Below, one piece after another: positions 15,001 to 21,000 of a stretch of 64,000 bases of DNA; position 1 is the first letter of the stretch; each line of letters starts with the position of its first letter. The position numbers were made by a program. The DNA comes from Escherichia coli (lineage in GTDB: Bacteria > Pseudomonadota > Gammaproteobacteria > Enterobacterales > Enterobacteriaceae). The stretch lies in NCBI RefSeq assembly GCF_003018255.1, contig NZ_CP027440.1; one strand, given 5' to 3'.

Positions 15001-18000
15001 CAGTATGGATGTTGAGCCGGGGTTGTACCGGGTGACGCTGAACACGGAAGGGTACGCGCCGTCATATGTGGGTGACATTCTGGTGAAGGCGGACTCTGCA
15101 CCGGGAACGCTGAATAAATTTCTGATGGACCTGGAGGACGCACAGTATTACCCGAAAGCCCTTGCAGAGCTGGAAGCGGTGGCCGCGGAAATCCTGAAAC
15201 GTGCGGAAGCGTCAGCGGCGAGTGCAGAGGAAGCGAAGAAACGGGCAGAGAATGCGCGGGGACCGAAGGGGGATAAGGGAGACACGGGGCCACAGGGTAT
15301 TCCCGGGCCAAAAGGCGATACCGGCGAGCGGGGGCCAAAGGGTGAGCGTGGTGAGGCAGGCCCACAGGGGGTACAGGGGCCGCGGGGTGAAAACGGCCCC
15401 GTGGGACCGCAAGGAGTGCCGGGTATTCAGGGGCCTGCTGGTCCTGCGGGCCCGCGAGGTGAAACCGGAGCCAGAGGCGAAAAAGGAGAGCCGGGAGATC
15501 CCGGAGGACCTCCGGGACCAAAAGGTGACACTGGCCCCAGAGGGGAGCCGGGGCCTCAGGGCCCGGCAGGTCCGAGGGGACCTGCCGGAGAGAGAGGGCC
15601 GCAAGGATTGCAGGGTGTGGCAGGGGAGAGAGGCGATACAGGTCCGGCTGGCCCACAGGGCGCTACCGGCCCCAGAGGACCACAGGGGGAAAAAGGGGGT
15701 AAAGGTGACCCCGGCCCGGCAGGTCCTGCCGGTGAGCGGGGGCCGCAAGGTGAGCGAGGTGCAACGGGCCCCGTGGGGCCGCAGGGGCCTGCGGGTCCTG
15801 CAGGGAAGTCTGCCAGCCTGGATGATATTGCCGACAAGGAGGCGTTTATTCGTAAGCTTGGGGTGGCAAGAGCTTACGGGCGTGATCTCAAAACAGGAGA
15901 AGGGGAGTGGACGACAGAAGAGTTCATCAACTGGCTGAAATCACAGGGTGCTTTTGAGGGCCCTTACTGGGTAATGACCACGACGCGGTTACTCAACAGT
16001 AACCGTGTGATCACGGATGTGGATACTGATTTGGGTAAGAAAAAAATCACCCTGAGAGGATGTGCCATTGAAGTGATGGGGTCATGGGAGAATGCGATAG
16101 TCCGGATCAGTGCAGGTGATGACCGGCCCTGGGATATGTTTTATGGCACGGACTGCACCTGCGTGGTCAGCGGCAGTATAAAGAGCTATGAGTGGCGGTT
16201 TAACTACACTTCCATCAGACGCCCCTCAACAGCGAAACTGGATGTGAACGGATGGGAGCGGGATGAGGCAACAGGAAGAATACGGCAATGGGGGCAGAAA
16301 CAAGTTGTCCGGCCAACCAGTGAAGGAGACACACATACCATCTATTTCCCGATAGCTTTTCCGTCAGCGGCGCTGAATGTCATTGTATCACCGGTAGGTT
16401 CACCGGGAAATTTCACGGGGTATGCCCTTTCAGAACCGTTGCTGAAGTCGGTAATACTGACGGTCAGTAAGGACACATACGGGCTGTTTTACTGGGAGGC
16501 CATTGGCTACTGAGGAGGGAGAATGGAACAGTATTTTTTTTCGCCATCAAATAATGCGTTTTATCCGGCCTCGCTTCGTTCGGTTTATGAGGCTGCCGGA
16601 AGCTGGCCGGAAGACAGTGTTGTTGTGGCGAGTGCCGTGTATAAGGTCTTTTCTGCCAGTGCAGCCCCGGCAGGAATGGAGAGGTGTGTGGGGCCGGAGA
16701 ATATGCCGATCTGGAGAGATGCGGGGCAACGATAAGCGGGGGAATGATGGTAAATATTAAAAACTTCATCTGGTATACGCCGGAAAATCCGGATGTGCCG
16801 GGGGCGATGTACCTGAAATCAGAGGATGGTCAGGACTGGTATGAGTGTCTGCCCTTGTTTTCGCCGGATACGCTGAAAGTGGTTTATAACAGTGCAGGGG
16901 TTATCACTGATATCAGCAGGGACGTACAGGCGCTGTGGCCAGCGAATCAGAGTATTGCGGAGGTGGCAGATACGGAAGAAAACCGCAAAGCTGATATCTC
17001 GGGGCGGTGGGGCTTTGACGGGGAGAAAATCACGGATCTGCTGACCGCGGAGAAAGCGCGCGGGATGAAGGGCGATGAAATAAACGCGTGGCGTAATGCG
17101 ATGGAGGCGGCGAACTACACGTTTGAGCACAATGGCCGGAAATGGGACTACGGGAAGTCAACGCAGACGCGTCTTGAGCCATCGGTGGCGGCAGCGAAAG
17201 CGGGGAAACTGCCAGAGGCGTTTTTCTGGACGGATGCGGAAAACAATGATGTGCCGGTGACAGCAGAAGAGCTTATTGCGCTGAGTGAAGCGGCAGAGCA
17301 GGCGATGTTCACCAAAGGGATGGAAATCCACATTCGCCAGCGCACCATGAAGAAGGACCTGGAATCGCTGAGCAGTGCGGATGAGATCCTGGCATACAGG
17401 GTTGGCTGGGCACAGGAATAACAGACAAAAAGATGGGGGACCATCACCTCCCCCATGAACTGCGTTGATTATGTCATTATTGTGAAGGTATTCACTATGC
17501 CGGGTAAATAGTGCCACGGAAAAGTTAATTCCGGAAGTGACGGAACTCTCATTTTTCGTGCATCCTGTTGATATGGATGATTTTTCATATTTCCGGAAGT
17601 CCGTATTTTGCCCGGGCGCGGTTGCATGCTTCATTCGCGATGCCATTTTCTCCGGACATTGCAAATTCCCGGCATGTGGACGGACGGTTTTTGTAAACAG
17701 AGCAATATGCGTTTTCACCCGGAGTTCCCGCCAGAGCGACACATCTGGGATTTTTCTGACTGGTGCCGCGCATACAGCGATGAAAGGGGGATATTTGCTC
17801 AGTGAGACTGACCGGAACCTTTCCGCCAGCATCGTCAGCTTCTGCCCAGTAAAAAGAGACGCGGAAAAATGCACAACAGGCACCACACGTCATGCATGGA
17901 TTCGGATTGTTCATTTTTATACTATTTGTTGTTTTTTCAGCGATCAGATCAAAGGACGCTGAAAAAAAACATTCTCCAAAATTAAATTATAACTATTTGA

Positions 18001-21000
18001 TTTTATGGATAGAGGCATGCTTTTTACGCAAAAGTAAAAAGCATGCCAAATTTGCTATTAACTCTTTGAATATTCAGCACTAATCATCTATTTCGGTTGC
18101 CTTCTTATTCAGCAGACGAGAAGCGCGCCAGTAAACCAGCAACATCAGGCCCATTACGATAGTCAGCGTAATGCTGGTGGCTGCACCAAACGGCCAGTCA
18201 CGAATATTGAGGAACTGTACCTTGATGACGTTACCGATCAGCAGGTTTTTCGCACCGCCCATCAGGTCGGACACATAGAACAGGCCCATCGCTGGCAGCA
18301 TCACCAGCAGACATCCGGCAATAATTCCCGGCATCGTTAGTGGGATAATGATGCGGATAAAGGTCTGCAACTTGCTGGCACCGAGATCGCGCGCCGCCTC
18401 AAGCAACGGCTTATCCAGTTTTTCGATACTGGAGTACAGCGGCATCACCATAAACGGCAGCAGAATGTAAACCAGACCGATAATCACCGCACTAGGCGTG
18501 AACATGATGCGAATTGGTGTATCGATAACGCCCAGCCAGAGCAAAAACTCGTTGAGATAGCCTTTGGTGCTGAGGAAAATTTTCAGCCCGTAAATACGAA
18601 TCAATGAGTTGGTCCAGAACGGAACAATCAGCAGAAACAGCAGCAGCGGACGCACCTTGTGTGGCAGCTTCGCCAGAAACCAGGCAAAAGGATAGCCCAG
18701 CACCAGGCAGGCGAGGGTGGCGATCAGCGCCATATTCAGCGAGTGCAATAGCACTTCAAAATAGAGCGGATCGAGCAGACGCGTGTAGTTATCCAGCGTA
18801 AAGACCATTTTGACGAAACTGGCGTCGTCGCGGGTCAAAAAGCTGGTGCCAATGATCATCAGGTTGGGCAGAAAGACAAACAACACAAGCCAACCGACAA
18901 TAGTGACAATCACTACATTCTGGAACTTACTTGTGTTCTTCATCAGCCAGTACGACCTCCCAGCTTTCTACCCAATTAATGGCCATTTTTTGGTCGAGAG
19001 AGTGGTCAAAGTCAGGATCGTCTTCATTGAAGAATTCGCTGACCATCACCATCTTGCCATTTTCCAGCTCAACAACCGACTCCAGCGTCATGCCTTTGTA
19101 GTTACGCTCGCGAACGTAACCAATCAGCCCTTCGGCGTGGTTGTCGTCGTTAATCTCTTCAACACGTAAGTCTTCCGGGCGCAGCAGAACATGCAGTTTT
19201 TGCCCCGGTTCAACGGTGAAGTTAACGTAGATATTACATTCGCGGCCTTCAACGTTGGCGCGTACGCGCTGCTCGTCGAGACGTTCGATGACAGTGGCGT
19301 TAAACATATTGATTTCGCCAATAAACCCGGCAACAAACAGGTTTTTCGGCTCTTCGTAGATTTCACGCGGCGTGCCGTCTTGCTCAATGCGACCATCGCG
19401 CATCACCACGATCCTGTCCGACATGGTAAGTGCTTCTTCCTGGTCGTGAGTTACGAACACGAATGTAATACCAAGCTTACGCTGTAACGCTTTCAGCTCG
19501 TTCTGCATTTGCTTGCGCAGTTTGTAATCCAGCGCTGAGAGCGACTCATCCAGCAACAACAGACGAGGCTTGTTAACCACCGCGCGGGCAATGGCGACGC
19601 GTTGCTGTTGACCACCAGAGAGCTGATGCGGTTTGCGTTGAGCGAAGGTTTCCAGCTGCACCATCCGCAGGGCTTCCATCACGCGGGGCGTAATTTCATC
19701 AGCGGGGGTTTTTTGCATGCGCAACCCAAAGGCCACATTTTCGAACACGGTCATGTGGGGGAAAAGTGCGTAGCTTTGGAAAACAGTGTTCACGTAGCGG
19801 TTTTCCGCCGGAACGTGGGTGATGTCCTCGTTATCCAACATGATGCGTCCGGAATCAACAGTTTCCAGACCTGCAATCAGGCGAAGAACGGTTGTTTTAC
19901 CGCAGCCAGAAGGGCCAAGCAGCGTGAGGAACTCGCCATTGTTGATAGTCAGATCCAGCTGGGGAATGACCTCTTTACCATCAAAGCATTTGCGAATTCC
20001 CGCCAATTGCACCAGCGGTGAAAGCGAACTCGGTTGTTTATTCAATTTTTTACTCTGTCCCATGTAAACGCAACGGATGGCTTACCGATGCGGGGTTTGT
20101 GGTTAACCACCTTGGTGACTCTTAATGAGGGCGGTAATTCTACGGCAAACCGCTTGAATCGCCAATCTTTGTTGTGAATTACTGGCTTAGCTTTATATTC
20201 ATTAAGGTAATGCTGATAAATATTCCCGCTTGCAGGGCTAAAAGTGACCTGACGCAATATTTGTCTTTTCTTGCTTCTTAATAATGTTGTCACAAAAAGT
20301 GAGGGTGACTACATGGATAAACTACTTGAGCGATTTTTGAACTACGTGTCTCTGGATACCCAATCAAAGGCAGGGGTGAGACAGGTTCCCAGCACGGAAG
20401 GCCAATGGAAGTTATTGCATCTGCTGAAAGAGCAGCTCGAAGAGATGGGGCTTATCAATGTGACCTTAAGTGAGAAGGGCACTTTGATGGCGACGTTACC
20501 GGCTAACGTCCCTGGCGATATCCCGGCGATTGGCTTTATTTCTCATGTGGATACCTCACCGGATTGCAGCGGCAAAAATGTGAATCCGCAAATTGTTGAA
20601 AACTATCGCGGTGGCGATATTGCGCTGGGTATCGGCGATGAAGTTTTATCACCGGTTATGTTCCCGGTGCTGCATCAGCTACTGGGTCAGACGCTGATTA
20701 CCACCGATGGTAAAACCTTGTTAGGTGCCGATGACAAAGCAGGTATTGCAGAAATCATGACCGCGCTGGCGGTATTGCAACAAAAAAACATTCCGCATGG
20801 TGATATTCGCGTCGCCTTTACCCCGGATGAAGAAGTGGGCAAAGGGGCGAAGCATTTTGATGTTGACGCCTTCGATGCCCGCTGGGCTTACACCGTTGAT
20901 GGTGGTGGCGTAGGCGAACTGGAGTTTGAAAACTTCAACGCCGCGTCGGTCAATATCAAAATTGTCGGTAACAATGTTCACCCGGGCACGGCGAAAGGAG

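Follow-up and report, generated by a model that had tools for sequence, protein, structure and literature searches.

We have analyzed a stretch of 64,000 nucleotides of the Escherichia coli contig NZ_CP027440.1 (from here on, the window), in which prophage DNA meets potB, a gene of the operon coding for the spermidine importer PotABCD. Reading from the phage towards the chromosome, the last structural prophage gene (16747..17421, + strand) codes for a DUF4376 protein of tail fiber or tail fiber assembly type (PHROG phrog_11571, tail fiber protein, E 7e-147), and a DUF4376 protein is annotated at the corresponding position in strains RM10466 and OkiPb01682. It is followed by a gene for a YkgJ-like cysteine-cluster protein (17585..17914, - strand), by a perfect inverted repeat (18014..18047), by potB with a hybrid C-terminus (18080..18943, - strand, with a TAG stop at 18080..18082) and by potA, the first gene of the split operon (18927..20063, - strand, from the list of open reading frames and the annotation of relatives). 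The potB frame has 287 codons as called by the Prokaryotic Genome Annotation Pipeline (PGAP), and in relatives PotB is the RefSeq protein WP_000799399.1. A preliminary description of this DNA had located the potB stop, the inverted repeat and the YkgJ-like reading frame correctly, and the tail fiber assembly gene (tfa) that it placed next to the latter is the + strand gene ending at 17421.

The attachment site in potB

Comparison with the uninterrupted locus of E. coli K-12 sets the true boundary of the prophage inside potB. A three-way alignment of the K-12 attachment site (attB) with the two prophage ends, attL and attR, of strain OkiPb01682 left a single common stretch, the 12-bp core CCTTCTTATTCA, which is also present in the window (18100..18111) and occurs there only once. 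This is the crossover region. To its right the window follows K-12 potB, with 97.5% identity over 814 nt in an alignment starting at 18100, and to its left there is phage DNA. In genomes with an empty site, the matches to the window start exactly at 18100 on the potB side, and those to the potC-side junction stop exactly at the end of the core. After excision attB would be expected to read ...AAGAAGGTGGAACTCGAATGATC... / ...CTGAATAAGAAGGTGGAACTCGAATGATC..., and the core at attL to read TGAATAAGAAGG. The alignments identify the prophage as a site-specific insertion at a 12-bp core within the last codons of potB. Because the K-12 homology ends at 18100 and the core occupies 18100..18111, the boundary is located 18-32 bp within potB and not at its stop codon, where the preliminary description had put it; the same three-way alignment bears out its other proposal, an insertion at the limit between potB and potC.

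The 3' end of potB is supplied by the phage (18080..18099, - strand). Alignment to K-12 and translation assign to this segment two of the three Ala codon bases, the TEIDD codons and the TAG stop, and PotB ends in ...LLNKKATEIDD* in the window versus ...LLNKKVELE* in K-12, the last six codons coming from the phage. The suspicion that the final codons of potB had been replaced was therefore justified, and the alignment proposed for checking it gave both the att core and the changed C-terminus, in which VELE has been exchanged for the phage-encoded ATEIDD. In K-12, potB and potC overlap by 4 nt.

There is a well known precedent for such an arrangement. The element e14 and phage 21 integrate at icd in the manner of lambda and supply the end of the gene. 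There, likewise, the core is located in the last codons and the phage arm restores the frame with a slightly different C-terminus, and the likeness extends to a tyrosine recombinase with an arm-binding domain plus an excisionase (Xis), which for the phage described here are found in relatives. In contrast to icd, the potB target is internal to an operon, so that potC and potD lose their promoter, and the 4-nt overlap with potC is broken.

A second class of phages at the potB site is found in ETEC1731 and EC2 (L009 3784-4064 and L032 1330-1550). It has the same core with a different phage arm (P arm), an identical Xis, a near-identical integrase (Int) and a PotB tail that reads VSELDD*. Compared with the native VELE, both phage-supplied tails, ATEIDD and VSELDD, have two residues more, and both are acidic.

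potC and potD at the other end of the prophage

We searched the whole window for potC or potD sequence and found none. As the preliminary description had stated, the two genes are not adjacent to potB, where there is phage DNA instead. Strain RM10466 is 100% identical to the window over 17422-18102, and both RM10466 and OkiPb01682 show the order ycfZ-ymfA-potD-potC, then int-xis-...-stx2A-stx2B-...-tail genes-ykgJ, then potB-potA-pepT, with a prophage length of ~47-49 kb. The prophage carries Shiga toxin (Stx) 2a in these closest relatives, and potC-potD are intact beside its integrase, which confirms for them the splitting of the pot operon that had been proposed. The potC gene of the relatives keeps the 20 nt upstream of its ATG, within the core and on its chromosomal side, and stands directly downstream of int and in the same direction. 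A scan of the coding strand of attL between the int stop and the potC start gave no terminator-like site. The integrase is annotated as of the Arm DNA-binding-domain type and matches PHROG integrase families, Xis matches a PHROG excisionase family, and the two genes adjoin the opposite junction in RM10466, OkiPb01682 and EC2.

At attL of OkiPb01682 (L002 5036-5075), the phage base beside the core turns a potB codon CTG into ATG. The resulting frame, ATG AAT AAG AAG GTG GAA CTC GAA TGA (MNKKVELE*), ends in a TGA that overlaps the potC ATG, like the native potB stop. This short frame may be a coincidence. Its conservation is little informative, because at the 12 occupied sites sampled the P' arm as a whole shows a conservation of 96% or more.

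To estimate how widespread these junctions are we used a set of 5426 complete E. coli genomes. The 1.1-kb junction including ykgJ was found in 77 of them, mostly Shiga-toxin producers, at 98-99.6% identity. The P arm of the window type was more frequent (653 genomes) and the potC-int junction, or attL, was present in 1614, among them sequence type 131 (ST131), O157:H7 and O111:H8. An artefact of assembly, an objection that the preliminary description had itself raised, has practically no likelihood. Nothing was found in its favor, the 77 complete genomes with the same 1.1-kb junction come from independent projects, and the break falls exactly at the 12-bp core common to attL and attB.

Very improbable too is a separation of potB and potC by homologous recombination between prophages, through an inversion or a deletion that would leave potC-potD somewhere else than at the other prophage end. 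Events of this kind have a precedent in a reported inversion of 650 kb, one breakpoint of which was a potC-site prophage (PMC10925052); besides, the window does not reach the left end of the prophage, and 89 genomes have the same P arm and core joined to a DinI-like region close to ssrA. However, the junction in the window is the exact site-specific attR of 77 to 653 genomes, depending on the segment considered, and both relatives examined have the simple potC-int...potB arrangement. We regard the interval as almost certainly the attR junction of a lambdoid prophage integrated by a tyrosine integrase at the 12-bp core.

The site is not new. In a review, potC is listed among the insertion sites of Stx phages (PMC8065619); the attribution comes from this review, as potC is not named in the accessible text of Steyert et al. 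2012. A 'PP_potB' has been described in O157:H7 clade 8 (PMC9997748) and potC-site prophages in O157:H7 outbreak strains (PMC10925052). In another report, the RM10466 Stx2a-2 phage and related phages are said to "disrupt potAB-CD" and to share one integrase type (PMC9453080); RM10466 Stx2a-2 (O113:H21), Stx2a_4, Stx2a-1_00-3076 and Stx2d_EH41 use the integration site found in the window. A prophage between potB and potC with a shared integrase type matches this published potC/potB site of Stx and lambdoid prophages. The integration site and the disruption of potAB-CD by this phage lineage are thus already published, and the finding is a correct rediscovery. What we add at the base level is the 12-bp core, the phage-supplied PotB tail, and the finding that potC, placed downstream of int, retains its start codon and its ribosome-binding region. 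No description of the 12-bp core, of the PotB tail exchange or of the palindrome was found in the accessible part of PMC9453080. A further addition is the ykgJ copy in the cargo slot in which sister phages have effector genes. Regarding the PotB C-terminus or potC-potD expression in lysogens, the literature search led to a transcriptome paper with no comparison of lysogens and non-lysogens. The pot operon is split in ~30% of complete E. coli genomes, which makes spermidine import via PotABCD and the transcription of potC-potD a physiological question.

A copy of ykgJ in the cargo position

The gene between the tail fiber region and the attachment site codes for 109 amino acids on the - strand and matches the CxxCxxCC family of Pfam (PF03692, UPF0153; E 6.3e-12) along the full model, positions 1-85 of 85, which upholds its earlier assignment to the YkgJ family. 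Its RefSeq name is YkgJ family cysteine cluster protein. Compared with K-12 YkgJ, the product has the same length and 83% identity (81% at the DNA level), the CxxCxxCC motif is unchanged and a single Cys further on is replaced by Tyr. Homology to K-12 is limited to 17598-17914, in the ykgJ coding sequence, and does not extend past the start codon. The codons that differ are synonymous in 39 cases versus 19 non-synonymous. When the protein was compared with NCBIfam and PHROGs no family was found in either, Pfam alone giving a match. Since the 81% identity is confined to the coding sequence, synonymous differences prevail (39 to 19) and there is no PHROG family, the gene is an intact host-derived gene (a moron) in the usual cargo slot, with a substitution pattern of purifying type.

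Sister phages that use the same att site have type III effector genes of the WxxxE family and of DUF1076 in this slot (fS25a), and of ykgJ only the first ~66 nt remain. The position is the same as that of the effector locus known between tail fiber and attR in lambdoid phages, the difference being that here it holds a copy of a core gene and no known virulence gene. In E. coli, ykgJ is a core gene without established function that a transposon study ties to filamentation in biofilms (PMC8743551).

The gene is a mosaic with respect to K-12, the first 90 nt being identical at 86 of 90 positions and the other 240 nt at ~73%, with the boundary near 17825-17850. This limit falls approximately at 17849, the point at which homology ends in the sister phages that carry other cargo, which suggests recombination within ykgJ. 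Places with ykgJ-like sequence are several in many genomes, up to 6. In strain TOE17 (L006 3002-3325) a frameshifted ykgJ-like copy, 89% identical, is located after tail fiber genes at another site, near btsS, and is followed by an IS5 element and a DinI-like gene.

Chromosomal DNA of the ykgJ region has been described in lambdoid prophages before, at a similar ~81-84% identity, as the element attB-in-PP_2 (PMC8112680). We considered the copy in the window as a member and rejected it, because its resemblance to K-12 is limited to the ykgJ reading frame and goes no further than the start codon; no homology to the ykgJ/ecpE intergenic region was detected anywhere in the window.

A scan of 17300-18300 for sigma-70 promoters gave no site at threshold. 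When the scan was relaxed, a perfect TATAAT appeared at 17986-17991 (- strand) with a weak -35, and because of it ykgJ could have a promoter of its own. Its transcription could be autonomous or come by read-through from potAB. Downstream of the gene, the consensus scan marked a terminator-like hairpin (17433..17456, - strand) with an 8-bp stem, 5 GC pairs and a T-run in the tail CTTTTTGTCT; the fold energy of this hairpin is unexceptional (z -1.65). An inverted repeat, TTTTTTCAGCG-N14-CGCTGAAAAAA, is found at 17932-17967, 18-53 bp upstream of the ykgJ start codon; it is part of a stable predicted fold and is not conserved in the Stx1a_10012/fS25a arm.

The phage arm, its palindrome and the pot operon

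The segment 17849..18099 is a conserved att-proximal module, in which the P arm of attP, the attachment site of the phage, is joined to the 5'-terminal 66 nt of ykgJ. It is common to potB-site phages with other cargo and shows ~87% identity to the ends of Stx1a-converting phages and to strain fS25a. We reconstructed attP by joining the phage side of attR in the window to the phage side of attL in L002. The attP of a free phage was also sought, and the only two 'phage' records with this int were both prophage predictions that include the potC/potD host flanks.

The 9-mer TCTCCAAAA (17973..17981, + strand) is a candidate arm-type Int site found by motif matching. The P arm has a single copy of it and the attL of the relative has two tandem copies beside int, in the P' arm; in all the P-arm classes aligned it is invariant while the surrounding sequence varies. 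Its single occurrence in the window is at chance level, as one match or more turned up in 49 of 100 shuffles; what speaks for an arm site is the repetition and conservation across arms and not rarity. Such a pattern is that expected of arm-type Int sites. Beside it, AATCAAATAGTTA (17990..18002, - strand), read from the sequence, is a candidate site for the integration host factor (IHF). The IHF consensus, WATCAANNNNTTR, is well established and is matched here in full, and divergent P arms all retain the motif core TTGATTTT unchanged.

Between these motifs and the core there is a palindrome (18014..18047) made of two 14-nt arms (18014-18027 and 18034-18047) that are 100% complementary and separated by a 6-nt loop, so that the perfect 14-bp hairpin reported previously is indeed there. 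By our own estimate, ~4e-4 perfect 14-bp repeats within 100 nt would be expected by chance in a sequence of 1 kb. Folded as RNA in its context the palindrome reaches -24 to -27 kcal/mol (z -4 to -5), a stability not equalled by any of 200 shuffles. It lies 52 bp from the core, at approximately -92 to -59 from the core center, and 100-133 bp upstream of the ykgJ start codon. In lambda, Xis and Fis bind in a roughly corresponding region of the arm. A test for a repeat of the repetitive extragenic palindromic (REP) type gave no second copy of the hairpin in the window. The preliminary description had offered two roles for it, as part of the att site or as a terminator. The first stands insofar as the hairpin falls within the span expected for a P arm, although outside the core; the second does not stand for a canonical intrinsic terminator, because no T-run follows the stem on either strand.

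These elements can be put together as follows. A lambda-type tyrosine integrase recombined at the core and placed the whole phage between potB and potC. The P arm gives potB a surrogate 3' end and leaves PotB at full length with its new tail; potC, as in the relatives, would keep its start codon and ribosome-binding region, lose the potA promoter and land downstream of the phage int. The slot between the last tail fiber gene and att is the usual position for cargo, here the intact host ykgJ copy. As RNA, the hairpin could cause the pausing or stabilization of transcripts coming out of potB in the lysogen, or out of int when the phage is free. The modes of transcription of potC-potD and ykgJ and the role of the hairpin in this scheme are what we infer.

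A number of observations weigh against this account. The window contains the right 18 kb of the prophage, beginning in the head genes, and the int end and the position of potC-potD are taken from relatives. The nearest of them, RM10466, has the same order of tail fiber gene, DUF4376 gene, ykgJ, potB and potA; it carries an island between roxA and phoQ that is missing from the window, and for this reason the window is not RM10466 itself. The Int and IHF sites are candidates identified by matches to motifs. As for the hairpin, the tails that follow the stem, AAATTTGC on the + strand and TCTATCCA on the - strand, have no T-run in the terminator scan, and an Rfam scan of 17000-18600 at E <= 1 gave three sub-threshold matches of chance level, none for the hairpin. 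In related phages the left arm has one or two changes (TT to TG or AG) and the right arm is unchanged, so pairing is lost and not compensated. Finally, EC2 has an identical Xis (WP_000003742.1), a near-identical Int and a P arm without the palindrome.

Two functions of the palindrome have to be weighed at this point. It might be a functional RNA element like tI/sib of lambda, limiting int in the circular phage and, after integration, ending or stabilizing the potAB transcript; it would also shield the prophage from host read-through and free int transcripts to run into potC-potD. In the circular phage the hairpin, like tI/sib, is found past the att core on the downstream side of int, and integration parts it from that gene. 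In the reconstructed attP it is ~200 nt downstream of int on the same strand, and the great stability of the stem (z ~-5), the lack of a terminator-like site between int and potC in attL, and a 6-bp dyad of unrelated sequence (GCCGTT-ACCTTA-AACGGC), which the EC2/ETEC1731 arm has at this position to within 2 nt, all fit such an element, the coincidence of the dyad having a chance of ~1-2% by a rough estimate. In contrast to lambda, and judging from sequence, the hairpin here has no U-tract, is only 14 bp long, lies inside the presumed P arm and does not maintain its pairing: the position expected of tI/sib is found and the maintained duplex is not. Besides, 14 bp is short for an RNase III substrate, the sib of lambda lies beyond the P arm, and Rfam has no match. 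We consider an RNA element of this kind rather unlikely.

Slightly less doubtful, and still only a tentative possibility, is that the palindrome acts as DNA and is bound, within the P arm, by a dimeric accessory protein of the Xis, Fis or regulator type that is needed for excision or for the control of ykgJ. Its distance from the core is that at which lambda binds Xis and Fis, its place upstream of the ykgJ start codon is compatible with the control of that gene, and the core-proximal arm GTAAAAAGCATGCC was invariant in 12 of the 12 variants recovered with an adjacent core. This sample is biased and the invariance is partly imposed, because the search pattern for variants fixed most of the other arm positions. 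Against a DNA site, lambda Xis binds direct and not inverted repeats, and EC2 does without the palindrome while having the same Xis and almost the same Int. DNA-level and RNA-level roles are both at a low level of confidence and the rest of the likelihood goes to no function at all. The palindrome would be a feature of this P-arm allele rather than a required part of the att site.

A more ambitious alternative is a rewiring built by the phage, in which the palindrome stops or processes the int RNA in the free phage and later caps potAB, int reads into potC-potD, ykgJ is transcribed by read-through from potA, and the short attL frame restores translational coupling to potC. If true, a phage present in ~30% of complete E. 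coli genomes would keep spermidine uptake and tie its cargo to a host operon. We find this combination improbable as a whole, and keep to integration by a lambda-type integrase with a surrogate end for potB.

The P arm, with a variant of the hairpin and a 13-bp core (CCTTCTTATTCAG), was also observed joined to the DinI-like region near smpB/ssrA mentioned above, the 89 complete genomes belonging to O26, O121 and other Shiga toxin-producing E. coli (L015 10958-11150, also L017 and L022). This fusion could be an insertion at a secondary site or the relic of one prophage inside another.

Other features of the window

Within the prophage, the tail fiber protein at 14855-16513 has long collagen-like Gly-X-Y repeats and matches the PHROG 'collagen like minor tail'. 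The annotation of RM10466, a near-identical relative, places a Hok/Gef family toxin gene between gpJ and the collagen-like tail fiber gene. On the other side of the pot genes, in the region 29692-32198 and onward to ~64000, a second prophage starts just after icd (29692..30942), with an integrase at 31056..32198 (- strand; PHROG integrase, E 2e-117). The 3' end of icd is the classic site of e14 and phage 21. The 13-kb chromosomal segment from potB to icd is thereby flanked by two prophages.

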